From the NCBI GenBank assembly GCA_026986575.1, contig JALSOH010000004.1:128001-192000 (forward strand): a stretch of DNA of 64,000 nucleotides, in the 5' to 3' direction. The notes below the pieces were generated by a model, which searched no databases, was not told where the DNA came from, and worked only from the letters and a program-made list of their open reading frames with translations. Below are positions 21,258 through 49,778 of this stretch, piece by piece. The translations under genes were made by a program, and so were the position numbers. This DNA is from Thermoproteota archaeon (GTDB taxonomy: Archaea > Korarchaeota > Korarchaeia > Korarchaeales > Korarchaeaceae). The number at the start of each line of letters is the position of its first letter. The first letter of the stretch is position 1.

Positions 21258-21470
21258 TAGCGCCAGCCGGCGTAATCGCCAACTATGCGGGGCGCGTTCG
21301 TTTTCACACATATATCCATGGAAAACTTTCCTTTCCTAGAGTCTAGGGTCTTTCTAAAAGCTGTTTCGAGCTTTACCCATTTCGTTAACTTCAAGGATTT
21401 ATTTCATTATTATCTCATAATTAAAGGGAAACTTATATTTCTCCCCCCCCCCAGAATCAGGGTGATCATA

Positions 21471-21773
21471 TTGAAGATATATGGGATTGAAAGAGAGGTA
21501 TTTGCACTTTCTCTCGCAATCCTGTTAATACTGCCGTTAGTAGCCAGTATACCAAACTCCATGGGTGTCTGGATAGGGACCTATGTAAGAACGTGGTCTG
21601 TGAAGCGTGCTCACAGGATGGCTAGCTGGGCGCTTGATCAGATTACCGATCCCATCGGATGGGCAATAGGACACCATACTTGGTACACACGCCTCGCATC
21701 TATCGCACTCATAGCTTATACTGGCATTGGACCTTATTACGCGGCATTCACGATAGGATTCACTGTAGGGTGA
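21471..21773 (+). CDS. putative circular-bacteriocin-like precursor 1 (100 aa)
   Basis: GGTGA SD and TTG start; hydrophobic leader, W/A/G-rich amphipathic core ending FTIGFTVG; first gene of a SpoIIM/Yip1/ABC operon. Confidence 0.6.
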   Translation: MKIYGIEREVFALSLAILLILPLVASIPNSMGVWIGTYVRTWSVKRAHRMASWALDQITDPIGWAIGHHTWYTRLASIALIAYTGIGPYYAAFTIGFTVG

Positions 21774-22312
21774 CAGAAATTATTAGAACATCCTGTTTAC
21801 CCGAGTTTTTTATTCTAATCATTTATCTATCATCGTTTGTTGTAGGTACATGGCACACCTTTAACGAAAATGGCGCTCGGGATGGATCCTTCCATCTGAA
21901 GGATGTTAAAAATATTAATATAGATTACCTCGATTTCTTCAGGATGGTATTGTTAAATAATTTAGTGGCAGGTATCTTAATCATTGTGGGAGGATGGTTG
22001 TTCTGCATACCGACTCTCTTAGTCCCCATAGCTTCGGGTTACTTTGCTGGGCTTTACTTTGGAGCTGCTTACAGAGCTTATGGACTCTTCATTTCCTTAA
22101 TTTTGTACATTCCCATGCCCTTGGAGATAGCCGCCATAGTTATCCTAGGTCATGTATCCTTCAAGCTATGTAAGGAGAATCTCAGGAGATTAAGGGGAAA
22201 CGACTCGGATGCTCCTTTGCTCAGAGGCCATATTAAATCTATCACATACGGTATTTTCCTCATAGTTGTAGGTGCTGTGATCGAGACAGTTATTCAATTC
22301 TACATCGGTTAA
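21770..22312 (+). CDS. SpoIIM/DUF95 family membrane protein
   Basis: LNNL..G..I..GG....PT, PLEIAA, C-terminal GAVIET; GTG overlaps the precursor stop codon. Confidence 0.8.
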   Translation: MTEIIRTSCLPEFFILIIYLSSFVVGTWHTFNENGARDGSFHLKDVKNINIDYLDFFRMVLLNNLVAGILIIVGGWLFCIPTLLVPIASGYFAGLYFGAAYRAYGLFISLILYIPMPLEIAAIVILGHVSFKLCKENLRRLRGNDSDAPLLRGHIKSITYGIFLIVVGAVIETVIQFYIG

Positions 22313-22342
22313 ATTCATGAATGAGATCGCCGAGGGAGATTT

Positions 22343-22936
22343 ATGAGGCTATTCTTTTCCTTCATGCTAGTGCTTCTCACGGGAATCATGGTACACCTTT
22401 ACTTCACTATGCCGTTCTTAAAGCCTAGTACCTCCACATACGCCGAAATGGATGTCCGCATTATAAGGGGATCTTTCCTACTCACTCCGGTATTTTCCAG
22501 CCTCATAGTCGTCCTGATATGGGCTGTGGAATCTTCTTTAGCCTCGCTCGTCATCAGAAGATCGGTGAGAGGGGCGGAAAGGTCCCACATAAATTTAGGC
22601 GTCATAATGAGCGAATTTTCCTTGGGATACGTTCCTGAATTTATCTTCCTCCTCATAATAGTCCCGCTCGTATGGTTCAACCTCCCTGAATACACAGTGA
22701 CCTCTGTGAAGGAGCTTATTAACGCATCTAAGAGCCTAGGAGAGTCTCCATTATACGTAAACGGGATGCTCGCTCTGATTGCTGTATCCATATCTCGCTA
22801 TCCCATATACGCAGCCATACTCAGATACAGATTGGATATAGGATGGAGGGAGACCCTCACTATCATCGCCCTGCTTATCATTGTTGATACACTCATAGCT
22901 TTGTGGGGAGGAGGGTTCGACTTAGGTAGGGGGTGA
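22343..22936 (+). CDS. Yip1-like multi-pass membrane protein
   Basis: About 5 TM helices; W.V.S...LV, LGYVP, LRYRLDIGW pattern resembles Yip1. Confidence 0.55.
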   Translation: MRLFFSFMLVLLTGIMVHLYFTMPFLKPSTSTYAEMDVRIIRGSFLLTPVFSSLIVVLIWAVESSLASLVIRRSVRGAERSHINLGVIMSEFSLGYVPEFIFLLIIVPLVWFNLPEYTVTSVKELINASKSLGESPLYVNGMLALIAVSISRYPIYAAILRYRLDIGWRETLTIIALLIIVDTLIALWGGGFDLGRG

Positions 22937-22943
22937 GTTAGGC

Positions 22944-23591
22944 ATGAGAACTGAAGATAACCTCATCTTAGAGGTTAAAAGGATAAGTAAAAGGCTCGGG
23001 AAGAGACAGGTGTTAGCAGATGTGAGCTTCGACGTGAGGAATGGAGAGGTAGTCCTCATAAGGGGGCCCAATGGGTCGGGAAAGACGACGCTTCTAAGAA
23101 CCATTGCTGGGGTGTTTAGACCAGATTCCGGTCGAGTACTCCTATTGGGAAGGGATATTCACGAGGATATGGGTGTGAGGAGAGAAATCAGCTACTGTCC
23201 TGAGAGGCTAGGCCTTCTTGGGGATTACACAATCGAGGATAACATGATGTTCTTTACCAAAGTGTTCGGGAGATCGTTCGACGAGCACAGATTTAGAGAC
23301 TACGTGAAAGGGTTTCGGCTCGAGGGATACTCGGATGACAAGATATCCAAGCTCTCGGCTGGGACTAGGAAGAAGGTGGCTATCATCAGGACTCTCGTCT
23401 TCCCGGCTAGGCTGTACCTGCTTGACGAACCACTAGCTAACCTAGACGAGGAGAGCGTGAGCTTTTTAATTGAGGAAATTAGGAGAATGGCCGATCTAGG
23501 ATCTTCCTTCCTGATATCTTCTCACATAGAGTTCCCGGCTGCTGATCGTGAATTAGAGATGAGAGGTGGGGGACTTGTCGAGGTTAGGTGA
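22944..23591 (+). CDS. ABC exporter ATP-binding protein
   Basis: GPNGSGKTT, LSAG signature, LLDEP, SSH. Confidence 0.95.
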   Translation: MRTEDNLILEVKRISKRLGKRQVLADVSFDVRNGEVVLIRGPNGSGKTTLLRTIAGVFRPDSGRVLLLGRDIHEDMGVRREISYCPERLGLLGDYTIEDNMMFFTKVFGRSFDEHRFRDYVKGFRLEGYSDDKISKLSAGTRKKVAIIRTLVFPARLYLLDEPLANLDEESVSFLIEEIRRMADLGSSFLISSHIEFPAADRELEMRGGGLVEVR

Positions 23592-24309
23592 CCTAATAGC
23601 GGGTCACCTCTACCTAATGGGTGGATTGACCAATGTCAGGGAGATCTTCGTGTTCTTGAGCCCACAGATCCTGTTTTTGGCACTAGCTGAGGTCATAGCA
23701 GGATCCAGGACGTATACAGAATTATTGATGGTTACTTCGTTGCTTGAGAGTTTTTCCTTAGTCATTACGTATATTCTCCTTGGTATCGTGGTGCCGGGGA
23801 GGCTAATCAGATTAAGCTACTCGATGAGAGATGCCGGAATGATGGAGATATTCCTGAATCAGGGGGTTGGATTGGATCAGGTATTGCTGTCTCTCTGGAT
23901 CGGTTCGTCCCTAAAATACTCCTTATACGTGATTGCAGGAAGCCTGATAGCCCTGCTCTCTTTATACCTAGCTGGATGGATGACAGTAGTCGAATTCCTA
24001 ACGGCATTGGGCGTGATCGCCGTCATGGTCACACTCTTCTCGGCAATTTGCATTACCCTATCTCTTATCCTTCCTCCCAGTGAAGCTCAATACTGGTCTC
24101 AATTAGTCTTTTTCCTGATCTTCGGATATTTATACTTAGGTTTCCTCAATCCCCGGAATTACAATGATATCGTGAGGCTCTTCTTGGGCGGATACTTAAA
24201 CCCCATGTCGCTGGGTGGAGGGGCCATAGCAACCTTTCTCGTAATAGTTTTACTGATAGGATTATCTGAGGAGAGGGGGGATATTATTGAAATTGATGAG
24301 GTTAAATAA
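23566..24309 (+). CDS. ABC-2-type permease
   Basis: About 6 TM; RDAGMMEIFL motif equivalent to the ABC-2 E..G..E.L motif. Confidence 0.7.
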   Translation: MGDLSRLGDLIAGHLYLMGGLTNVREIFVFLSPQILFLALAEVIAGSRTYTELLMVTSLLESFSLVITYILLGIVVPGRLIRLSYSMRDAGMMEIFLNQGVGLDQVLLSLWIGSSLKYSLYVIAGSLIALLSLYLAGWMTVVEFLTALGVIAVMVTLFSAICITLSLILPPSEAQYWSQLVFFLIFGYLYLGFLNPRNYNDIVRLFLGGYLNPMSLGGGAIATFLVIVLLIGLSEERGDIIEIDEVK

Positions 24310-24973
24310 TCTAAATGCCCAAATCACCTTGGAATTGACTTTGCTTGTAAGGGGTAGGGGAAAGAGGATCGGGTGGTTAATTAGGGTACTCGTGGTCTCC
24401 ATGGCTGTGCTGTCGCTGGGTCTGCTAAGCTCACTGGAGTTGGGTAATCTCAAAAACATTTACCTATCACTCCCGGGTGTATGGCTCCTGTCTTCGGCCT
24501 TGATGATGGATAATACGGTCGAGATAAAGAATAGCGGTCTTGCTGAGATTTTGCTCCAGACATATGGGCCTTCATATTTGGGTGTGAGGTATCTCCTATA
24601 TACTGTGGTAACGATACTCCTATCAATATCCTTTATTTTGCTGGGAGGCTCTGTAGTTTCACTGATGGTTGGGATAGGATTATCGGGTTTGGATGCCATT
24701 TCCTTGCTATCTCTCTCCGTCATAGGTTCAACGGCTTTAATGACCGTTACAGTCTTATTATCGGTGAAAATTGGTGGCCTGAGGTTATTAGACACCTTTT
24801 CCCTAGCAAGTGGCGGACTTACCCTCCTCCTGATCATTTCCATGCCTTCTATATTGGAGGCGCTTAATCAAGAGTTGTTTGTTTGTATGTTGCTCGCTGG
24901 GACATTCTCCATAGCTGTTCTGACTATAGTGTACCTTAAGAGGCATGACTTTCCGGCATTATTAACAATCTAG
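24287..24973 (+). CDS. ABC-2-type permease
   Basis: About 6 TM; EIKNSGLAEILL motif. Confidence 0.7.
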   Translation: MKLMRLNNLNAQITLELTLLVRGRGKRIGWLIRVLVVSMAVLSLGLLSSLELGNLKNIYLSLPGVWLLSSALMMDNTVEIKNSGLAEILLQTYGPSYLGVRYLLYTVVTILLSISFILLGGSVVSLMVGIGLSGLDAISLLSLSVIGSTALMTVTVLLSVKIGGLRLLDTFSLASGGLTLLLIISMPSILEALNQELFVCMLLAGTFSIAVLTIVYLKRHDFPALLTI

Positions 24974-27950: not shown

Positions 27951-28466
27951 TTACCCTTCAGCTGAACTCTCTCCGCTTTCTTCACCGCTCCTCTTCTCCT
28001 TCCAAGGTTCTCTTAGTTCTCCTGGCTCTGAGAGCTTATCACCGTACTTGTAGAACAATATGTAGATGAAATAGCTCCCTGCCACTAAGAAGGCAAAGTC
28101 ACGAAGCTCTTTGCCGGGAATTAAGTCTGAGCTAATCCCCAGTCTGATGAGCGTATACGGATAAAGCACTACCATCATAACGTAGAAGGTTATCAGAGAG
28201 AAGAAGACGTATATGAGAGCATATCTCGTTCTCCTTACTTCCAGCATGTAGTAGTCGATCGCACCGATCAGCCCGAAGCTGGTAATTACTATGAGCACTC
28301 CTTCTATAAAAGGTAGATACCTGTTATTCTTACTGGCAACCGGAAAGTATGTAATGAAATGATAGATTAGCATGGCAAAAAGCATAAATATAGTAAATAA
28401 TATCCTCTCTTTGGATGATTTATTTGAACCTCCTACATCTTGAGGCCTTAAGGTACGCATTGACAT
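27951..28466 (-). CDS. four-TM membrane protein, putative immunity protein
   Basis: Four hydrophobic segments; overlaps the 3' end of the Cys-rich precursor gene. Confidence 0.5.
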   Translation of the reverse strand: MSMRTLRPQDVGGSNKSSKERILFTIFMLFAMLIYHFITYFPVASKNNRYLPFIEGVLIVITSFGLIGAIDYYMLEVRRTRYALIYVFFSLITFYVMMVVLYPYTLIRLGISSDLIPGKELRDFAFLVAGSYFIYILFYKYGDKLSEPGELREPWKEKRSGEESGESSAEG

Positions 28467-29245
28467 ACCGTACCTACCTCGCTACAACATCCGCCATACA
28501 GGGTAAATACTAAGCAAAAGGGACACCAGACTATCAAGCATTCCCAGAATGCCGGAACATTTCTACAGCTAGCGCAGCAATTGAGAAGACATGAGATATT
28601 CCATCTACAGCAGTACGCGGAGCAACTGCAGTAGTCCCCACATGAATCATATCCTGGATATGCTGTGCAATTATGAGCGCAACTGCTCAAATTTATATAT
28701 GAACCATTGATGATTCTAGCATCAATTGATATATAGTCTTTATGAGAGCTGAGAATCAACGCTATACTTCTAATTTCATTGACTAATTTAGTGCCCTTCA
28801 TATAAATTAAATACTTTCTTTCCTTAAGTGGGATTAGAAGCAGTACTGCTGTGACTATATCTCCATCGACCGAAAATCTAATGAGCGAGCCTTTAGGTTG
28901 AGATGCCTTAAGATCATTTACATTAAGTGCGCCCCTCTCTATAAGAGAAATCACATCATTTGATTTTAAAGCCTCTGTAACGAAATTTTTGAGCTCTGCT
29001 CCCTCCAGTTTCATGTGATCCAATTCAACAAAATAGGGTTCATTTCTTAATCCTTTGTTCGCCTTTATTTTGAGATCTCCTGTACAAGTAATTGATACTA
29101 TGCTGAGAAGAGATGCCTTTAATGCTTCTTTAATAAACCTCCTTCTGCTCAAATTAATTCTCCATAGGCGCATGAGCGTAATAGACATTCCTGAAATATA
29201 AATTCTACGTTCTATTCCTATGCATTCTTTCCTTGAGAATCTCAC
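28448..29245 (-). CDS. Tat-exported halocin-C8-like precursor with 18-Cys C-terminal domain
   Basis: LSRRRFIK twin-arginine motif plus h-region; ~77-aa C-terminus with 18 Cys; real start likely ATG 29188. Confidence 0.6.
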   Translation of the reverse strand: MRFSRKECIGIERRIYISGMSITLMRLWRINLSRRRFIKEALKASLLSIVSITCTGDLKIKANKGLRNEPYFVELDHMKLEGAELKNFVTEALKSNDVISLIERGALNVNDLKASQPKGSLIRFSVDGDIVTAVLLLIPLKERKYLIYMKGTKLVNEIRSIALILSSHKDYISIDARIINGSYINLSSCAHNCTAYPGYDSCGDYCSCSAYCCRWNISCLLNCCASCRNVPAFWECLIVWCPFCLVFTLYGGCCSEVGTVCQCVP

Positions 29246-29945: not shown

Positions 29946-30312
29946 GATAAGGGAGAGGTATAGGGTCTACGCGATCATACTCTTCGGCTCACGGGCCAGG
30001 GGAGACTGGCTCCCTCACAGTGATTACGATCTTCTCGTCGTGGCCGAATTCAAAGAGCCCTTCCTAGACAGGATCTACGAGCTCTCCGGATTGGCTAAGG
30101 GCCCTGTGGAATTCCATCCCTACACCCTCTACGAGGTGAGGGAATTACTGAGGAGGGGCGTTCCATCGATCGTTGATGCCCTCGAGGAGGGCATCGTCCT
30201 CTACGAGGGGGAGGAGTTCAGGGAGGTGAGGGAGCTTTTCGAGGAGATGAAGAGGAAGGGGCTCAGGAGGAGCGGTGTATCGATCATATTGCCCGGAGGT
30301 GATCAGCCGTAG
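29920..30312 (+). CDS. minimal nucleotidyltransferase (MNT)
   Basis: LFGSRARGD....SDYDLLVV. Confidence 0.92.
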   Translation: MDLRKLVNRIRERYRVYAIILFGSRARGDWLPHSDYDLLVVAEFKEPFLDRIYELSGLAKGPVEFHPYTLYEVRELLRRGVPSIVDALEEGIVLYEGEEFREVRELFEEMKRKGLRRSGVSIILPGGDQP

Positions 30313-31284
30313 GTCTCTTCCACGCCCCCACCCAGCCGGGGATCTGGTGTTCCCGAGTTTTATCGACCCTTCACCCTTCAATACGCTTCTAACGTCGGAT
30401 ATGAAGATCTGAGGTGTGTTGCAAGATCCCAAGCATCCGCAGTAGCTGTAGTAGGGACATGGATCCCTTTTCGTGTGGGTCATCATGTAGCTGACGAACA
30501 TGATACCTCCCAGATCCCTCAGCTCCAGCCCGCACGTCCCGTTAACTAGCGTGTTGGCGGAGCCGCACGACCCCCCGCAGTTCGCTGCTGGTTCACTGCC
30601 CGATAGGGTGATCAGCGCTACGCCCTCACCCATGCCCAAGAACCTCGCTCTGAAGATCATGTGAACGTCGCATGCCGTGCGAGGTGGTTTCTGTCTCGTG
30701 CACCCACTCGCCCTGCCATGTTCGTAGTAAAACCACCAGACATTCCCCTCGGGGTGCATGAGCCCGTGATATATCTCGTTGCACCTCCACATACCATCTC
30801 CGTAACCCTCTGATGGTCCGCTCAGCCTCCTCCACCCCTTCTCCTCCCTAATCCAGAGATCCGCGACCCCTCTCAGGGGGTCCAGTAGGGTGGGCGGTAA
30901 GTCGGCGAAGATCCTAGAAGGCACGCTGCTAAGGGCTAGCTCTGATGCCAGCATCTCGATATAGTGGATGTCGTGACTCCCGTTGAGGGACCATATTATA
31001 ACGAACGGGAGGGTCCTGTTGATTCGCTCGGCGTAATCGAGCAGCTTCCTTATCTCTAACCTGTTAAACCTGAGTGGAGGGACGACGAGGGCGAGAGAAC
31101 CTAGCCTCCTCCCGTATCTCTCGAATACCTCCTTCTCCTTGGCGTAATATTCAACGTCAGGGAGGGATTTGAGGAACATCTCCTTCACGGAATTCCCCCT
31201 AGGAGCTAAGCTTAAGACAAGTCCGCCGATGAGTAGGATAAGGAATAGAGAATTAAGAGCCCTCCTATCGACCGTGGGATCCAT
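30145..31284 (-). CDS. secreted or membrane-anchored Cys-rich hypothetical protein
   Basis: RR plus hydrophobic N-terminus; ~10 Cys in the C-terminal half; last ~55 codons overlap MNT antisense. Confidence 0.55.
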   Translation of the reverse strand: MDPTVDRRALNSLFLILLIGGLVLSLAPRGNSVKEMFLKSLPDVEYYAKEKEVFERYGRRLGSLALVVPPLRFNRLEIRKLLDYAERINRTLPFVIIWSLNGSHDIHYIEMLASELALSSVPSRIFADLPPTLLDPLRGVADLWIREEKGWRRLSGPSEGYGDGMWRCNEIYHGLMHPEGNVWWFYYEHGRASGCTRQKPPRTACDVHMIFRARFLGMGEGVALITLSGSEPAANCGGSCGSANTLVNGTCGLELRDLGGIMFVSYMMTHTKRDPCPYYSYCGCLGSCNTPQIFISDVRSVLKGEGSIKLGNTRSPAGWGRGRDLRLITSGQYDRYTAPPEPLPLHLLEKLPHLPELLPLVEDDALLEGINDRWNAPPQ

Positions 31285-31376
31285 GCATCCTTTCCTATGT
31301 CGTACCGGGTGCAATGTTATAAGATCTGATGCGCTGCCCTCGAGTCAGTTTTTAATTTCGAGGGGAGCAATAAATT

Positions 31377-32369: not shown

Positions 32370-33441
32370 GTGCACATGGTAAGCGAGAAAGTACGGAGTC
32401 AGAAAGTTACTCCTAGGGGAAGACGCATCCCTCATGACCTCAGAATGGAACTCTACTTTTTAGTTAGAGAGCCCCGCGATAGAGGGATGAGTTATCGTGA
32501 GATTCAGAGAATTGTGGAAAGGGAGCGCGGTATCAAAATAAGCAGGTCTCACATATCCTACTGGATTCACGGCCTTCATACCCCGCTAAACGAGCCCTAC
32601 AATCATGTCGATACTTCCAAGAAGGGTGAGCTGGCTTGGATAGCAGGGATGTTCGTAGGGGATGGTTCCGTGAAGATCAACAGGAAGGGTCGCTTCTTGG
32701 TGCTGAAAGTTAAGGATAGGGAGCTAGCGGAGGCTGCCGCTAATAAACTGGCAGTTGTTCTGGGAAAGGGAGAGAGGTACGCGGTAAACAGGATGGGGGA
32801 CGGTAGGTACTACGTACAGGTCCAGTCGAGGGAACTAGTCGACCACTTGAGAGCGTGGGAGAACATTCTCTCGCATCTAGAGAGAAGCCCTAGAGAGTTC
32901 ATTCAGGCACTCTTCGATTGTGAGGGCGGACCTATAGGACACGTTAGTGCATCTGGCAGGTTCTTCGCCAGAATAGATGTAGGTAATACCAATAGAGAGT
33001 TGCTCGAGGATGTATCCCTGAAGCTCTCTGACATGGGGATTCCAATCAACCGTTTCGATGCATTATCCCAAGGGAAAGGTTTTCGTAACTAGGAAGGGGA
33101 GATCCGTGGCTAGAAGAGACTGTTACTTCTTAAGGATATATCGGCAGGGGGGCATCATTAGGTACCGGGATGAGGTTGGATTTGTCACTTCAAGGAAGCA
33201 GGAGAAGCTAGAGGACATAGTTTACATCCTCTCTAATCTCGGATCTGGACGGGAAGCTGCCGTGGAGTGGATTAGGAGATACGAATACAAGAGAGGGATG
33301 GGCCGCCAGAGGTGGTTCAGGAGGGAGAGGTTCCTTGAATGGGAGGATGCTGTTAAGGAGTATGAGAGGTTCTTAGCCAGGAGATCGGCGATTAATCGTT
33401 ATTATAGGTCACAGCATTCCCCTCTTTCTGCAGGCCTCTAG
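32370..33441 (+). pseudogene. free-standing HTH + double LAGLIDADG endonuclease, frameshifted near 33044
   Basis: GMSYREI HTH, AWIAGMFVGDG and FIQALFDCEG motifs; removing one A joins the two ORFs. Confidence 0.8.
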
Positions 33442-33885: not shown

Positions 33886-33953
33886 TGGCGGGCCCGCCGG
33901 GATTTGAACCCAGGACCTCCGGCTCCGAAGGCTGGCACTTAAATACCTCTGTC
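33886..33953 (-). repeat. att-like 3' fragment of tRNA-Arg, copy 1
   Basis: Anticodon arm to CCA of a tRNA-Arg(TCG)-like gene with no 5' half; near-identical to 34876-34942. Confidence 0.8.
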
Positions 33954-34255
33954 CTAGGGTTTGATAATAGACCAAGACAGGCAGTTACAATAAACATTCA
34001 TACTCATTACCTAGTACATGGGACAGCCAATCTGAGAGCTTAGCTTTGTTAATGCTATGGCTTCGGAGAGGTGATCAAAGGCAATCAATTATACTAATTA
34101 TAACTGTTAATGTCCCATTGAGAGAAATTATGTTATTAGGTTCTCATTGAAGCTTTATCATAAACACCGGATTATATTCATAGTAATATTTCATCCCTTT
34201 AGGGATAGGAGAAGCTAAGTGTAATGGGAAATCGCATTATATCATTTTCAACTTC

Positions 34256-34875: not shown

Positions 34876-34942
34876 TGGCGGCCCGTCGGGACTTGAACCC
34901 GGGACCTCCGGCTCCGAAGGCTGGCACTTAAATACCTCTGTC
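34876..34942 (-). repeat. att-like 3' fragment of tRNA-Arg, copy 2
   Basis: Direct repeat of 33886-33953; weaker similarity extends ~110 nt further. Confidence 0.8.
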
Positions 34943-35258
34943 TAACTAATTGATAGTAAGCGGGACAGATAGGTACAGTTTTATACTTATTATTCGGTGT
35001 ATAGGACAGTAGTCTAGAAATTTAGCGCTATTAAGAACATGTTTTGAGAGAATAGGGATAGTCTCCTATGGATATTAATGTCTTTAATGGATAATGGATA
35101 AAGAGGTGAGATCTAATATGCTTACATGTGATTAGTGAGCTGATAGAACCAATATATGAGGCTCTTGATTAAGAGAAAGTTAAGCCACTGGATGATACTG
35201 CCCCTATTCCGATTCTTCCCCCTGCGAGCTCCATAACTTTTCCTTGGCTCAAAAAAGA

Positions 35259-35534
35259 TTAGAGGGTTGAAGGGTCAACCTCAGCCATTGGATATACTCC
35301 TCCCAGGGGGAACTGGGCCTCGTTCAATATCCTCCTTATGGATTCCGCGTCCGGGGACTCCCAGCAGCAGTAAATCCTCTCGATTAAGCCTTCCTCTGTT
35401 AGTTGGACCCATGTGTTAATCAATCTGACCTCTTGGGTGGTGAGGTCCCTCACCTTCTTCCCCATAGCGGAGGCTACCTCAACGGATACCGGCTCAGCCA
35501 TATCGTGCACAGCCAAGAACTTTGGGACATCCAC
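35259..35534 (-). CDS. DUF4242 / SCO4226-like small protein
   Basis: PKFLAVH...IYCCWESPDAESIR pattern; start uncertain (ORF opens at 35597). Confidence 0.65.
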   Translation of the reverse strand: MDVPKFLAVHDMAEPVSVEVASAMGKKVRDLTTQEVRLINTWVQLTEEGLIERIYCCWESPDAESIRRILNEAQFPLGGVYPMAEVDPSTL

Positions 35535-35694
35535 GCGCGATATCAAACGCCTTTCATCGGTAAATCCTCTAACGAATCCTTGGAGACAACTGTTCATGGT
35601 GGATCCTACCTAAAAACCATGCCGCAGAGTGAGCGATATCGGATGGGTCTCTTGCTCACTCTCCCTCCTTAATATGATCGAACCAAAGGGTGCC

Positions 35695-36294
35695 TTAGGG
35701 ATAGAGTGCGTGATTTTTTAATAACTGCTGGGCAGCAATCTTCGGATAATATATTCTCAGCACTATGTCCGTCAAAAGAAGCATGAGTATCATTGCTACG
35801 TCGTCCACCCTCTTCATCCCATATCTATGATTGAAAACACGATAGAAGTAGATGAAGGATAGAGTCGAGAAGGAAGTATCGATTAGCGCCTTGATTGATG
35901 AGTATAGCTCGATACTAGATGCTCCTATAATGGGAAGAAGCACTAGATCCGTTACTAGTGATATAGACGAAAAGAGGAAGTAAAAGGATACAACACTCAG
36001 TATTGGGGAGAGCGGACCCTTATACACGCTTCTATAAAACAAGAAGAGGTAAGTTAGTGCTCCCAGCAGGCCCCAAAGTAGGGCTCCGGTGAAGCTGCTT
36101 CCTAACAATACAAAATATGCGATAACATATGGGGGAATGGATTGATTGGCTACACCCAGCTCGTTCAAGACGATCATTAGGTACAAGGATTGAGTACCCG
36201 TGTAGAGCAAGTATAGGAGAAGGGGCCTTCTCCTATTGGATGGAGGGCTATTGTTAAGCAGATCCGGATTTTCTTCTCTTCTACATATGGCCAT
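35695..36294 (-). CDS. Yip1-like multi-pass membrane protein
   Basis: About 5 TM; W.L.G.L.YL, Y..F...YGM pattern; last gene of cluster 2. Confidence 0.5.
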   Translation of the reverse strand: MAICRREENPDLLNNSPPSNRRRPLLLYLLYTGTQSLYLMIVLNELGVANQSIPPYVIAYFVLLGSSFTGALLWGLLGALTYLFLFYRSVYKGPLSPILSVVSFYFLFSSISLVTDLVLLPIIGASSIELYSSIKALIDTSFSTLSFIYFYRVFNHRYGMKRVDDVAMILMLLLTDIVLRIYYPKIAAQQLLKNHALYP

Positions 36295-36841
36295 TTAACT
36301 TCACCAAGATGCAAGGTATTGAGAGATAATATTCTATAACTGATGATAATATTATCATAATTAAACTTAATAACGCCAATTTTGTTAAATAAACTAACTG
36401 ATCTCTGGAGAGGTCATAGTGATCCCCGCCATGGATGACCGTTACGGCGCTCGAAAGACCTACGGATGAGGAGATGAGGATAGAAGTGATCTCCAGCGGC
36501 CCGTGGAATAGAAAGCAGGGGAGTGCACCTGTCAAGTTTTCTCTGAGAATTTCCCTGACGATGCTACCTACCACCATGCCGTTGAAGCTAAGGGAGAGAG
36601 CCGTGAGCGTTCCAAGTGTCACATATCCTATGGAAAGAATCAGGATAACGGAACTGTTCAAGAGTATAAGTCCGCGTAAATCATAATGTCCATTAAAGGA
36701 ATGAGGAACGAAAACTCCACCTAACCCTTCTGTGTAAGATTGATCTGGGATCAGGAAACTTCCTAAGATCCCGGCCGCATAGAAAAGCGATGCTAAGATC
36801 AGTCCCTCACCCACCCTTGGGCCTTGTTTCGTCCCTACCAT
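36281..36841 (-). CDS. SpoIIM/DUF95 family membrane protein
   Basis: LNS.V.L, FNGMVVG, FHGPLEI, SSVIEYY signatures. Confidence 0.88.
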   Translation of the reverse strand: MVGTKQGPRVGEGLILASLFYAAGILGSFLIPDQSYTEGLGGVFVPHSFNGHYDLRGLILLNSSVILILSIGYVTLGTLTALSLSFNGMVVGSIVREILRENLTGALPCFLFHGPLEITSILISSSVGLSSAVTVIHGGDHYDLSRDQLVYLTKLALLSLIMIILSSVIEYYLSIPCILVKLNGHM

Positions 36842-37778
36842 GGCTCATCCTCCTGATGATCTCTATTCTCTTCTCCAAGCTAGGATGCGTTGGAAGTAGG
36901 GAGGGGGTTTCCTTCATTCCATATATTTTGATCAGAGCGTTTATCAGATCCTCTGGATTTGAGTAAGATGCTGCAATGAGATCGGCCTTGACCTCCCTCC
37001 TCCTTATCAGGATTAAGAAGACCGACAACGCTGCCAAGAAGCCAGCCACCACTAGCAGGAAGATTACGGGATCGCGTTTCGTTACTGCCCCCGTTAGGGA
37101 GGAGGGTACTTCGCCTACAAGGAGTAGCATCGCGTACATCAGTAGTGTGTAGCCCAGATACCTGGCGATGTCTCCTTCTTTATAATGGGCGAGTTCGTGG
37201 GCCAGTACGCTCTTGATCTCTCCATTAGACAGCACCTTAAGCAGATCCTCATTTATGAAGACAGTCGGTTGAACGATCCCGCCAAGAAGCGCGGTTTTCA
37301 TTAGAGAGGATCTGAATAATCGGAGCCTTATATTCTTCCTGATCTCCATCTTTCCCTTAAGATCCTCGAAAACCCTCTTCAGATCGTCCGGGGGGTCTCT
37401 CCCCTGACCAATCTTATCGAAGATTATAGGAACCAGATTAACTGTGACGAACAGTACTACGAGAAGAGTGGAGAATTCCACTAGGATGCTGTGGTTGGGA
37501 AGTGAGGAGATCACAGCAGCGTAGATGAAGATCAAATATAAATCGAAATAATTGAGCAGGAGATCCTTGAATAATCTCCTGGCTCCCGGGCTTTCCTTAC
37601 GAAGAATGGGGTCTACAAGGGAGAGAATTATAGCAGCTAGTATCAAGATGAAAAATCCTGTGATAAGGGGGTTAAGCCTGTACTCCACCACGAGGATTAC
37701 GGTAAGAGACATCATAGCTACTGTTATGAGAGCCATCACTAAATTGTAAAGAGAAAAAAATGGAGAGTTAGTTCCCAA
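36807..37778 (-). CDS. M48 family membrane zinc metallopeptidase
   Basis: HELAH, REVKAD, THPSLEKRI; four N-terminal TM helices. Confidence 0.92.
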   Translation of the reverse strand: MGTNSPFFSLYNLVMALITVAMMSLTVILVVEYRLNPLITGFFILILAAIILSLVDPILRKESPGARRLFKDLLLNYFDLYLIFIYAAVISSLPNHSILVEFSTLLVVLFVTVNLVPIIFDKIGQGRDPPDDLKRVFEDLKGKMEIRKNIRLRLFRSSLMKTALLGGIVQPTVFINEDLLKVLSNGEIKSVLAHELAHYKEGDIARYLGYTLLMYAMLLLVGEVPSSLTGAVTKRDPVIFLLVVAGFLAALSVFLILIRRREVKADLIAASYSNPEDLINALIKIYGMKETPSLLPTHPSLEKRIEIIRRMSHGRDETRPKGG

Positions 37779-37788
37779 TGTAGATCCC

Positions 37789-38034
37789 TTATCCTATTAA
37801 AAAGCTCCCTACTGCTACAAGGGCGCCAGTGAGACCCGTAATTGGAGTACTGCATGCTGCTATTTTTGCTAGGGCTAAGAAATACCCTCCAAGTGCTACC
37901 GCAGCTGCTCCATAGTTACCTTTTGCAAGTAGATAGCCTATTCCCAACTGAGTGGCTGCAGGTGTTAATATAGGAACCACTAGTATTGCTATATTGAGGG
38001 CGAGGAGGGCTAGGGCTTTCTTTTCTGTCTTCAT
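37789..38034 (-). CDS. putative circular-bacteriocin-like precursor 2 (81 aa)
   Basis: Hydrophobic A/G/L-rich helical peptide ending VGSFLIG; heads the M48-SpoIIM-Yip1 operon. Confidence 0.65.
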   Translation of the reverse strand: MKTEKKALALLALNIAILVVPILTPAATQLGIGYLLAKGNYGAAAVALGGYFLALAKIAACSTPITGLTGALVAVGSFLIG

Positions 38035-38083
38035 ACCATCGCCCCCGTTCTCCTAACTATTAGAGAATTATAGAATAATGAGA

Positions 38084-38108
38084 ATAATTATAAAAATCTT
38101 GCGCGAAA
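38084..38108 (-). promoter_or_regulatory. BRE/TATA promoter of cluster 2
   Basis: Minus strand reads CGCGCAAGA-TTTTTATAA ~55 nt upstream of the precursor ATG. Confidence 0.5.
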
Positions 38109-48710: not shown

Positions 48711-49778
48711 CTAACTGGTCTGCGACCTGAACCTCTCAGTTAGGGTCACCAAGTAGGTCTTGCCGTACTTCTTCCTCTCCACGACCTTCCTATCGACTAG
48801 ATCCTTCAATAGTCTGCTTATCTTTGGTTTGGAGAACCCGGTCAGCTCGGGGAGCTCCTCCTGCGACACCTCGCCTCTCTCCATGACGACCTCTATGAGC
48901 TTCCTCTCATCCACGGTGAAGAAATCCATTATGTCGGAGGGACCCGGCTTGGGCCTCAGCCTGTAGATCAGGATCGCTACTGCCAGGCCGGCAAGCAGAC
49001 CCGTGAGGAGGGGGAGGGGTTTGAGGATCTCCCTTATTATGAACGAGGGTGACCATCCGCCTGAGAAGGGTTTGCTACCTCCTATCTCTCCGATGACCTC
49101 CACATTATAACCATGAGATGTGAACTTAGCTGCCTCCTCCCTATCTAGGCTACTACCTATCACCACCAAACTCTTCACATCCTTGAGGTGCTCCTTCAGG
49201 GCCGCTTCAAAGCCCTCGGGAGGCCTGCCGTTCATCGTGTAGATTATCGGGGCGTTCCTCTCCACGGCAACAGAGAGTGCCACCATGTAGTAGGAGGAAT
49301 TGAGCCCGTCAGCCAGCACCACTGAATCGCAGTCGTTCCAGTAGTACATAGCTAGGAGGAGGGATGTGTCGAGCCTAGTCGCCCCCCCTATCCTGCTGAC
49401 GGTCGCCCCCATTCTCCGCAGCTTTTCCTCGAATTCAATAGGGACGGCGTTAGGGGCACCTATTATGAGGATGCTCATGCCCTTACGGAACCTCATGAAC
49501 CCGGAGAGGAGGTTGAGCACCTCTCCCTCGTTGTCTGCCGTTAGATGCATGACCCAAGATCCGTGGGTTATACCGTAGGCCATGGCCACTGCCCAATCGG
49601 TGTATATGTCTCCCCTCACGATTACGGCGTCGAAACGAGCTTGCTGTCCCGAGAGGGGGATCAGGGGTATGATCAGAATGATCAGCAGGAGGATGGCGGG
49701 CCCGCCGGGACTTGAACCCGGGACCTCCGGCTCCGCAGGCCGGCGCTCTGATCCTTGCTGAGCTACGGGCCCGCTCAT
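48711..49778 (-). CDS. cell-wall-binding-repeat-2-like ectodomain + TM + C-terminal wHTH protein
   Basis: IIGAPNAVP, RIGGATRLDTS, one TM, Q.EL...TGFSK.KISR.L..L; first ~28 codons overlap tRNA-Arg. Confidence 0.75.
   Translation of the reverse strand: MSGPVAQQGSERRPAEPEVPGSSPGGPAILLLIILIIPLIPLSGQQARFDAVIVRGDIYTDWAVAMAYGITHGSWVMHLTADNEGEVLNLLSGFMRFRKGMSILIIGAPNAVPIEFEEKLRRMGATVSRIGGATRLDTSLLLAMYYWNDCDSVVLADGLNSSYYMVALSVAVERNAPIIYTMNGRPPEGFEAALKEHLKDVKSLVVIGSSLDREEAAKFTSHGYNVEVIGEIGGSKPFSGGWSPSFIIREILKPLPLLTGLLAGLAVAILIYRLRPKPGPSDIMDFFTVDERKLIEVVMERGEVSQEELPELTGFSKPKISRLLKDLVDRKVVERKKYGKTYLVTLTERFRSQTS
49694..49772 (-). tRNA. tRNA-Arg(GCG)
   Basis: CCGGC-CTGCGGA-GCCGG arm; full cloverleaf with CCA. 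Confidence 0.95.

Follow-up and report, generated by a model that had tools for sequence, protein, structure and literature searches.

A four-gene korarchaeal operon encoding a small hydrophobic peptide, an M48-family protease and a short SpoIIM/DUF95 protein, a candidate circular-bacteriocin-like cassette

In a 64,000-nt stretch of a korarchaeal genome (contig JALSOH010000004.1, positions 128,001 to 192,000; hereafter the window), we identify a minus-strand operon of four genes that encode an 81-residue precursor-like peptide, termed pep81, an M48-family zinc metalloprotease, a short-form SpoIIM/DUF95 membrane protein and a multi-pass membrane protein of 199 residues (Table 1). We tentatively favour reading this operon as an accessory, Korarchaeota-restricted cassette that processes and exports a peptide in a circular-bacteriocin-like but non-canonical manner. 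The genome under study is denoted G000, other G-numbers denote other genomes, and the phylum set comprises 43 genomes of the same Genome Taxonomy Database (GTDB) phylum.

A coupled operon under purifying selection

The four genes are tightly packed on one strand, with a 10-nt gap between pep81 and the M48 gene followed by overlaps of 35 nt (M48 and SpoIIM) and 14 nt (SpoIIM and the 199-residue protein gene), a spacing consistent with translational coupling of the operon. Upstream of pep81 lies a candidate promoter in which a transcription factor B recognition element (BRE)-like sequence, GCGCAAGA, precedes a TATA box, TTTTTATAA. The motif block CGCGCAA(G/T)ATTTTTATAAT is kept at the orthologous locus of genome G020, whereas the 5′ untranslated region between the block and the ATG diverges. 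Comparison with the G020 orthologues gave ratios of non-synonymous to synonymous substitution (dN/dS) of 0.24 for the M48 gene, 0.22 for SpoIIM and 0.15 for the 199-residue protein gene; pep81, with 19 synonymous and 7 non-synonymous changes, had the lowest ratio of the four (0.11). All four genes are real and under purifying selection, and do not represent a chance set of open reading frames (ORFs). An earlier first-pass annotation, made from the letters of the window alone, had described a tightly coupled four-gene operon on the minus strand with its own BRE and TATA box, and the ORFs, their spacing, the dN/dS values and the conserved promoter candidate all agree with that description. Among the contigs of three DNA sequencing runs, one source-like contig spans the locus and is accompanied by a few near-identical fragments. 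Just downstream of the operon, on the same strand (window 35259–35597), lies a gene for a 112-residue SCO4226-like (nickel-responsive) protein (PF14026, 5.2e-09), which probably does not belong to the cassette because its G020 counterpart is an ORF of only 76 residues.

The pep81 peptide

The peptide starts with a basic N terminus (MKTEKK), continues through a hydrophobic leader- or signal-like helix (residues 7–25) and a Gly/Ala-rich hydrophobic region, and ends with GSFLIG at the stop codon. Its 81 residues include 17 Ala, 15 Leu and 10 Gly, which together make up 52% of the sequence, and its grand average of hydropathy (GRAVY) is 1.21; the peptide is thus as hydrophobic and as rich in Ala, Gly and Leu as first described. 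Homologues were found at 93%, 80% and 59% identity, and the family holds six sequences in all, each of 79–81 residues and each with Gly as the last residue before the stop codon. When the genome is translated in six frames, 6,386 ORFs are 60 residues or longer, and the exact sequence FLIG falls among the last eight residues of just 2 of them, namely pep81 and a SpoIIM-adjacent peptide on contig C6, and the looser motif F[LT][IV]G in 3, the sole addition being the peptide of a further cassette in the window (cluster 1, window 21462–21773); as the motif was defined post hoc, after the peptides had been viewed, only the absence of other matches is informative. This C-terminal motif may serve as a recognition or ligation signal.

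The N terminus also bears on a different reading, given in the first-pass annotation as an example of what would refute a bacteriocin. Here pep81 would resemble the type IV pilins of archaea, as a short protein whose class III signal peptide is cut by a prepilin peptidase after MKTEKKA before assembly into a surface filament. FlaFind-type searches look for the pattern [KR][GA][ALIFQMVED][ILMVTAGS], and K6-A7-L8-A9 before the hydrophobic stretch appears to fit it. However, the homologue P0002 has Ser at position −1 (KSLV in place of KALA), no globular domain follows the pep81 helix, the neighbourhood has no gene for a pilus ATPase, platform protein or prepilin peptidase, and the equivalent position in three other cassettes of G000 is occupied by peptides with ordinary signal-like N termini. 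We consider a pilin highly improbable.

The M48 protease and the SpoIIM/DUF95 protein

The 323-residue protein matches Peptidase_M48 (PF01435) at 3.1e-22 and 79.7 bits, against a cut-off of 20.3, and more weakly PF05569 (M56/BlaR1; 1.7e-09). It carries the features that define the M48 family, HELAH at residues 194–198 and the Glu of REVKAD at about 269–274, both of which are kept in homologues, and its designation as an HExxH M48 protease is therefore secure. The NCBIfam equivalogs for HtpX and BlaR1 were not reached: the HtpX models scored 21–41 bits against cut-offs of 245–422 (best, 40.3 against 285), and with scores so far under the cut-offs the cassette protein is not an HtpX orthologue. 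Hydrophobic segments indicate about four N-terminal transmembrane (TM) helices and two more after HELAH; the HELAH loop is rich in Lys and Arg and has an even number of these helices on each side, so that the active-site loop probably faces the cytoplasm. The protein is a candidate leader peptidase or immunity protease. The M48 subtype was detected in 5 of the 43 phylum genomes (E ≤ 1e-8); in one of them (G003, contig C18), the neighbours of a 56% identical homologue are another type of SpoIIM and three small TM proteins (113, 97 and 113 residues).

The 186-residue protein matches SpoIIM (PF01944) at 9.6e-13 and 48.8 bits (cut-off 26.9), and has orthologues at 95% and 64% identity in which the motif FHGPLE is invariant, in agreement with its first description as a DUF95 protein with an HG.LE motif. 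At the level of the phylum, PF01944 is present in 37 of the 43 genomes, nearly all of which have one long form (open frame of 474–577 residues); in G000 the long form is a 460-residue fusion of RDD and SpoIIM domains (G000:C4:794398–795780; RDD 4.7e-14, SpoIIM 2.8e-18). To judge from the sequences, this near-universal RDD–SpoIIM fusion is the housekeeping copy. Short forms of 170–225 residues occur in 7 of the 43 genomes, with four in G000, five in G003, two in G020 and one each in G019, G047, G049 and G030. The subtype found in the pep81 cassette accounts for 4 clusters among 5.8 billion proteins.

Distribution and gene order of the cassette

Searches with pep81 returned significant matches in two of 41 genomes of relatives, its own included (G000 and G020); ten further rows of the genome search were noise, with E values of 0.015–0.8 and positions inside larger frames. 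The divergent family member P0005, used as a query, led to the same two of the 43 phylum genomes. Among 5.8 billion clustered proteins the family forms two clusters, and a HMMER scan of 1.84 billion representatives, run without a word index, yielded two matches at E ≤ 0.001, P0002 (80% identity) and P0003 (59%). The two collections together yielded three to four relatives of pep81. The peptide was found only in Korarchaeota, and the members at 59% identity (P0003–P0005) were absent from the 43 phylum genomes. Scans of metagenome contigs with the peptide alignment gave no relatives among 133 pattern matches, neither SpoIIM nor the peptide matched anything in scans of viral contigs, and scans of genome contigs with the fourth protein gave just two loci, both already known. 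The whole four-gene cassette is very rare.

Where the cassette occurs, gene order is retained. All four genes are present in the same order in G020, and on contig C57 of G003 an M48 gene, SpoIIM and the fourth gene follow one another in that order, the contig ending inside M48 and so before the place where a peptide gene would stand. The longest contigs for the peptide and for the fourth protein are of equal length (99,688 bp), and in other assemblies the same is true of SpoIIM and the fourth protein (58,966 and 2,057 bp), which indirectly suggests that cassette genes are co-located in these assemblies as well. Conservation of the small ORF beside a homologous cluster, the lack of which would have counted as a refutation in the first-pass annotation, is thus seen in G020 and very probably in a third lineage (peptide P0002 and fourth-protein homologue P0009, both from a contig of 99,688 bp).

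Further cassettes of small peptides and short SpoIIM

Just before each of the four short-form SpoIIM genes of G000, and on the same strand, lies a gene for a peptide of 81–103 residues with a basic, hydrophobic, signal-like N terminus. The genome therefore holds three small-peptide and short-SpoIIM cassettes besides that of pep81. We inspected the 15 short-form loci of the phylum by eye and found a small hydrophobic ORF just upstream in 12; of the remaining three, one lies at a contig end, one is ambiguous (G049) and one has no such ORF (G030). Within the literature searched, and as far as the searches go, the presence of up to four or five different accessory cassettes of this kind per korarchaeal genome, beside one housekeeping RDD–SpoIIM, is new.

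The cassette termed cluster 1 lies in the same window and encodes a SpoIIM protein (PF01944, 1.4e-15) and an ABC (ATP-binding cassette) ATPase (PF00005, 1.6e-30). It is conserved in G020 and on contig C25 of G003, with peptides 95% and 55% identical to that of G000. Like the pep81 cassette, cluster 1 places a leader-bearing small peptide before a short SpoIIM and a TM protein of about 197 residues, and it has the same patchy spread (G000, G020 and G003); unlike it, cluster 1 lacks a protease and encodes an ABC ATPase together with two permease-like proteins (ABC genes at window 22944–24973), and its peptide is more polar and basic, with no detectable homology to pep81 (hhalign probability 0.4%). 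Cluster 1 combines the precursor, DUF95 and ATP-binding proteins that mark circular-bacteriocin clusters in the parts of the literature covered here, and the pep81 cassette does not. The cassette type of contig C1 recurs on contig C38 of G019, where its 235-residue TM protein is 94% identical. Among the cassette peptides, blastp gave weak matches only, except between the 86-residue peptide of contig C1 and a 91-residue peptide on G003:C57. Proteases recur in short-SpoIIM cassettes, as M48 beside a different SpoIIM (G003:C18) and as a CPBP protease together with an HExxH protein (G047). The HExxH protein of G047 is a 164-residue, HELAH-containing protein encoded on the opposite strand with a weak M50 match (E 0.084), and that cassette follows two large secreted-looking proteins.

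The cluster-1 and pep81-cassette types co-occur in G000, G020 and G003, and neither was seen in the other 40 phylum genomes. This pattern would suit an island-borne module for self-protection against, or exclusion of, a membrane-active peptide, in which the M48, SpoIIM and 199-residue proteins would be immunity factors and pep81 either a cognate toxin, made with the help of the neighbouring ABC cassette, or a decoy. Abi/CPBP proteases and DUF95 have been linked to bacteriocin immunity; DUF95 contributes to immunity in circular-bacteriocin systems according to the portions of the literature covered, and a CPBP protease is present in the analogous G047 cassette. On the other hand, G000 and G020 are close kin, so that about two independent lineages underlie the co-occurrence; the two cluster types of G003 lie on separate short contigs; and PADLOC returned no matches. 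PHROGs gave generic metalloprotease matches only. We regard a self-protection or exclusion module as quite unlikely.

Table 1 Features of the pep81 operon and of related cassettes (window positions unless a contig is named)
Feature	Location	Strand	Description
Promoter candidate (archaeal)	38080..38100	-	BRE-like GCGCAAGA then TATA box TTTTTATAA, ~56 nt upstream of the pep81 ATG
pep81, 81-residue precursor-like peptide	37789..38034	-	ORF; purifying selection; homologues of 79-81 residues
M48-family zinc metalloprotease, 323 residues	36807..37778	-	PF01435 match; HELAH and REVKAD Glu
Short-form SpoIIM/DUF95 membrane protein, 186 residues, ~5 TM helices	36281..36841	-	PF01944 match; FHGPLE motif
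Multi-pass membrane protein, 199 residues, without a named family	35695..36294	-	ORF; purifying selection
Cluster 1	21462-24973	+	~103-residue leader-bearing peptide (21462-21773, end FTIGFTVG), short SpoIIM, 197-residue TM protein, ABC ATPase, two permease-like proteins
C1 cassette (L003)	G000 contig C1, 32242-33989	-	86-residue peptide, 61-residue Lys-rich TM protein, SpoIIM of 189 residues, 235-residue TM protein
C6 cassette (L002; peptide L002:537-821)	G000 contig C6, 404360-406435		94-residue peptide ending GFLIGIA, 136-residue TM protein, SpoIIM of 207 residues
G047 cassette (L089)	G047:C21, 4032-5891		99-residue TM protein, SpoIIM of 177 residues, CPBP/Rce1-like protease (PF02517, 2.2e-10)

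Genomic surroundings

The operon lies in a patch of 44–48% G+C content, compared with about 55–57% in the flanks. This patch also contains toxin–antitoxin-like ORFs (named by eye from their translations), a split LAGLIDADG gene and two fragments of tRNA 3′ halves. The fragments form two 79-nt direct repeats, 87% alike, at window 33891–33969 and 34880–34958; they comprise the T-arm and acceptor strand in minus sense and match tRNA-Arg(GCG) (49694–49772) in 25–27 of 27 bases. Lying beside the operon, they resemble traces left by integration or recombination, and similar tRNA fragments lie near the C1 cassette (C1:28697–28772 and C1:30239–30280). We considered an integrated element with tRNA-Arg(GCG) (49.7 kb) at one end and the 3′-half copies (33.9 and 34.9 kb) at the other, and rejected it because the genes between 40 and 48 kb are housekeeping ones (those for ribosomal protein S15, Ham1, RIO, PCMT, TruD and FEN1); no clean mobile element could be delimited around the locus. 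The LAGLIDADG-domain gene (PF14528, 1.5e-13; window 32370–33441, plus strand) is split into ORFs of 240 and 127 residues and is probably a frameshifted pseudogene, since G020 has a single ORF of 366 residues (L048 858–1958). Elsewhere in the low-GC stretch, window 27951–29245 (minus strand) encodes a 265-residue protein whose C-terminal third is extremely Cys-rich, followed by a 171-residue TM protein, and nearby a 389-residue Cys-rich protein is encoded at 30145–31314 (minus strand), in a bin of 56% GC.

Proposed function of the cassette

Starting from the demonstrated gene content, conservation and wider cassette pattern, we infer trimming, export, toxicity and perhaps cyclisation of pep81, as follows. 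The operon would be transcribed from its own TATA/BRE promoter, and pep81 would be made as an 81-residue precursor that is directed to the membrane by its basic N terminus and hydrophobic leader. The co-translated M48 protease could then trim the N-terminal part, cutting after MKTEKK or near residue 29, and the short SpoIIM and the 199-residue protein would export the product, protect the producer, or both. Because the operon has no ATPase, export would have to be ATP-independent or borrow the cluster-1 ABC ATPase (window 22944–23591), and the product would act in competitors' membranes. A head-to-tail bond between the invariant C-terminal Gly and the newly formed N terminus is conceivable, although we consider cyclisation of pep81 unlikely. 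Calculated average masses are 4970.9 Da for linear residues 30–81 and 7252.7 Da for linear residues 7–81, and each head-to-tail cyclic counterpart would weigh 18.0 Da less. Equally doubtful is the broader proposal that Korarchaeota make head-to-tail cyclised, membrane-active peptides, with this operon as a minimal version that needs no ATPase and whose M48 protease would itself be the leader peptidase, or even a transpeptidase partner, acting on the shared C-terminal F-L-I-G signal. Circular bacteriocins are prized for heat and protease stability. If the proposal holds, pep81 would be the first archaeal circular 'archaeocin', the M48 protein the first cluster-encoded maturation protease for the circular peptide class, and the class itself would extend to Archaea; a thermophilic four-gene cassette of a precursor-like peptide, a membrane zinc protease and DUF95, with no ABC ATPase, would also make the maturation steps testable.

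Several observations weigh against a circular-bacteriocin-like function, and a number of them favour its main rival, in which pep81 would be a resident small three-helix integral membrane protein. It would then serve a module formed by the M48, SpoIIM and 199-residue proteins as subunit, regulator or substrate, for example in membrane proteostasis or envelope maintenance, with SpoIIM as a scaffold like Bacillus SpoIIM in the engulfment complex; we regard this as a real possibility, though not a probable one. Circular-bacteriocin precursors are small (under about 110 residues), with an N-terminal leader of 2–48 residues and no C-terminal extension. For pep81, a four-sequence alignment shows no clear leader/core boundary and points to no cleavage site, because conservation over the first 29 residues is close to that of the remainder (13 of 29 columns invariant, against 29 of 52), as would suit a membrane subunit; a sharper contrast in a three-sequence alignment vanishes with four. 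The putative core has a GRAVY of 1.31–1.49 (1.31 for residues 30–81 of pep81) and at most two basic residues, both Lys, with none net in P0004 and P0005. With few charges, high hydropathy over the whole peptide as well as the core, and small-xxx-small packing motifs, the putative core resembles a membrane-spanning segment more closely than it does a soluble, cationic bacteriocin.

pep81 matched no Pfam or NCBIfam family, and the bacteriocin families PF09221, PF12173 and PF16942 gave no match even at E ≤ 10; a sequence profile search of the PDB at E ≤ 10 likewise returned nothing. AlphaFold2 (AF2) models were of low confidence (predicted local distance difference test, pLDDT, 65.4 for the whole peptide and 66.3 for residues 30–81) and showed three helices each; those of the whole peptide are long (2–38, 41–62 and 64–80), as expected of a three-helix membrane protein, and form no confident bundle of four or five helices. 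Foldseek found nothing in the PDB at E ≤ 0.001 for the low-confidence core model, and its two matches at E 7.7 and 8.8 are not bacteriocins; the saposin-like helical bundle with adjacent termini that the first-pass annotation had put forward as a check did not emerge from these models. A complex prediction for SpoIIM and pep81 scored 0.00 in a run without controls, which speaks neither for nor against an interaction. In favour of a bacteriocin, the nearest ESM-Atlas feature neighbour of pep81 is a PF12173 class IIc cyclic bacteriocin cluster (0.92, 189 of 256 features), with a PF09221 circularin/uberolysin cluster at rank 3 (0.90, 174 features) and a PF16942 CclA_1 cluster at rank 7 (0.83), values to be read against the 4–10% of cases in which shuffled proteins reach 0.9. 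This resemblance is a lead, not a test.

The partner genes leave similar room for doubt. The first-pass annotation had taken SpoIIM/DUF95 as the hallmark of bacteriocin loci; this holds for bacterial clusters, in which the parts of the literature covered treat the gene as class-defining, but SpoIIM alone is not diagnostic in archaea, where it is mostly a housekeeping RDD fusion, and the SpoIIM genes of two archaea from other phyla had no small peptide nearby. M48 homologues occur without an adjacent SpoIIM in G007 (54% identity) and in G019 (71%, at a contig end), and in G003:C18 the adjacency of M48 and SpoIIM comes with quite different small TM proteins, as would suit a resident membrane module. 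By Pfam, no ATPase domain is present in the four operon proteins, the flanking 112-residue ORF or within about 3 kb; the nearest ABC ATPase, that of cluster 1, is about 12 kb off. No small immunity-like ORF was seen among the operon ORFs, and the four peptide families of G000 show no detectable homology (hhalign 0.4%, 1.4%). The missing ATPase and immunity gene, like the mostly housekeeping nature of archaeal SpoIIM, favour the membrane-subunit rival.

The 199-residue protein, first described as a Yip1-like protein with about five TM helices, has about 4–6 hydrophobic segments, as described, but its link to Yip1 did not hold in profile comparisons. It has no Pfam or NCBIfam match, and none to PF04893 (Yip1) at E ≤ 1; a genome-wide scan with the Yip1 hidden Markov model (HMM) at E ≤ 10 matched two other genes and missed this one; and hhalign against those two Yip1 proteins of the genome gave a probability of 1.2%. 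In the ESM-Atlas, its feature neighbours include clusters partly annotated as Yip1 (0.92–0.93), and a structure search listed ten rows with TM-scores of 0.57–0.70, four of them partly annotated as Yip1 and all 'under the bar', so that a Yip1-like fold is a lead only. The protein forms 4 clusters among 5.8 billion proteins and is linked neither to the membrane proteins of C1-type cassettes, which form a family of their own, nor to the cluster-1 membrane protein.

Set against a resident membrane protein are the patchy, island-like spread of the cassettes and the several non-homologous peptide types per genome, which are unusual for housekeeping genes and typical of conflict loci; the position of the operon in a low-GC region amid toxin–antitoxin-like genes and tRNA fragments; the cyclic bacteriocins among the language-model neighbours of pep81; and the C-terminal FLIG or F[LT][IV]G shared by unrelated peptides. 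The circular-bacteriocin-like reading given to the operon at first thus keeps the DUF95 and M48 profiles, the ESM-Atlas neighbours and the sibling cassettes on its side, and lacks a bacteriocin HMM match, a match to a bacteriocin fold and an ATP-binding protein.

Comparison with known systems

In our full-text searches of the literature, we found no paper on circular-bacteriocin-like archaeal loci; the archaeal antimicrobial peptide survey of Makarova et al. 2019 lies outside that scope. The string 'archae' occurs zero times in the main texts of two circular-bacteriocin mining papers, one of them Xin et al. 2020 (PMC8534725); the supplements of both papers may list archaeal hits. In the sections covered of Xin et al. 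2020, DUF95 is the class-defining gene of the clusters and an ATP-binding protein is part of all reported ones; a YIP1 gene is mentioned for a single cluster, cerecyclin (cyc) of Bacillus cereus; the sole protease mentioned is S2P-M50, in one group; and the leader protease of circular bacteriocins is stated to be uncharacterised. The earlier statement that Yip1 genes recur in some circular-bacteriocin loci is thus matched by one cluster in this text and by no wider mention, and the statement that M48 genes recur there finds no counterpart among the clusters it describes. The circularisation mechanism and the roles of the genes are reported, in the literature covered, as incompletely elucidated. 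For leucocyclicin Q, build-up of processed peptide inside cells has been reported and linked to export.

The Bacillota circular clusters such as cyc, as far as their published descriptions were covered, resemble the pep81 cassette in the translational coupling between a small precursor gene and the genes for DUF95/SpoIIM and further multi-pass membrane proteins. As products, circular bacteriocins are very diverse in sequence, and by language-model features pep81 is nearest to PF12173, PF09221 and PF16942; it nevertheless fails all three bacteriocin HMMs, and its core is far more hydrophobic. The operon also differs in its lack of an ATP-binding protein, an ABC permease and a small immunity gene; in encoding an M48 protease, where the clusters described in the covered texts almost never encode a protease; and in its archaeal host.

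The other components have relatives of their own. Ste24 trims the N-terminal part of the yeast a-factor precursor, and the cassette protease resembles such Ste24/HtpX-type M48 enzymes in being, by its motifs, a membrane zinc protease of the HExxH...E type beside a small hydrophobic peptide that it could trim, although it is not an HtpX orthologue and has no CAAX context. SpoIIM of Bacillus subtilis is part of the engulfment DMP complex; it and the archaeal RDD–SpoIIM fusions belong to the same Pfam family (PF01944) as the cassette copy, which differs from the long archaeal forms in being short, stand-alone, 28–33% identical to them, patchy in its spread and, throughout G000, next to a small peptide gene. 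What sets the pep81 cassette apart from these systems is that it is at once archaeal, protease-containing and ATPase-less.

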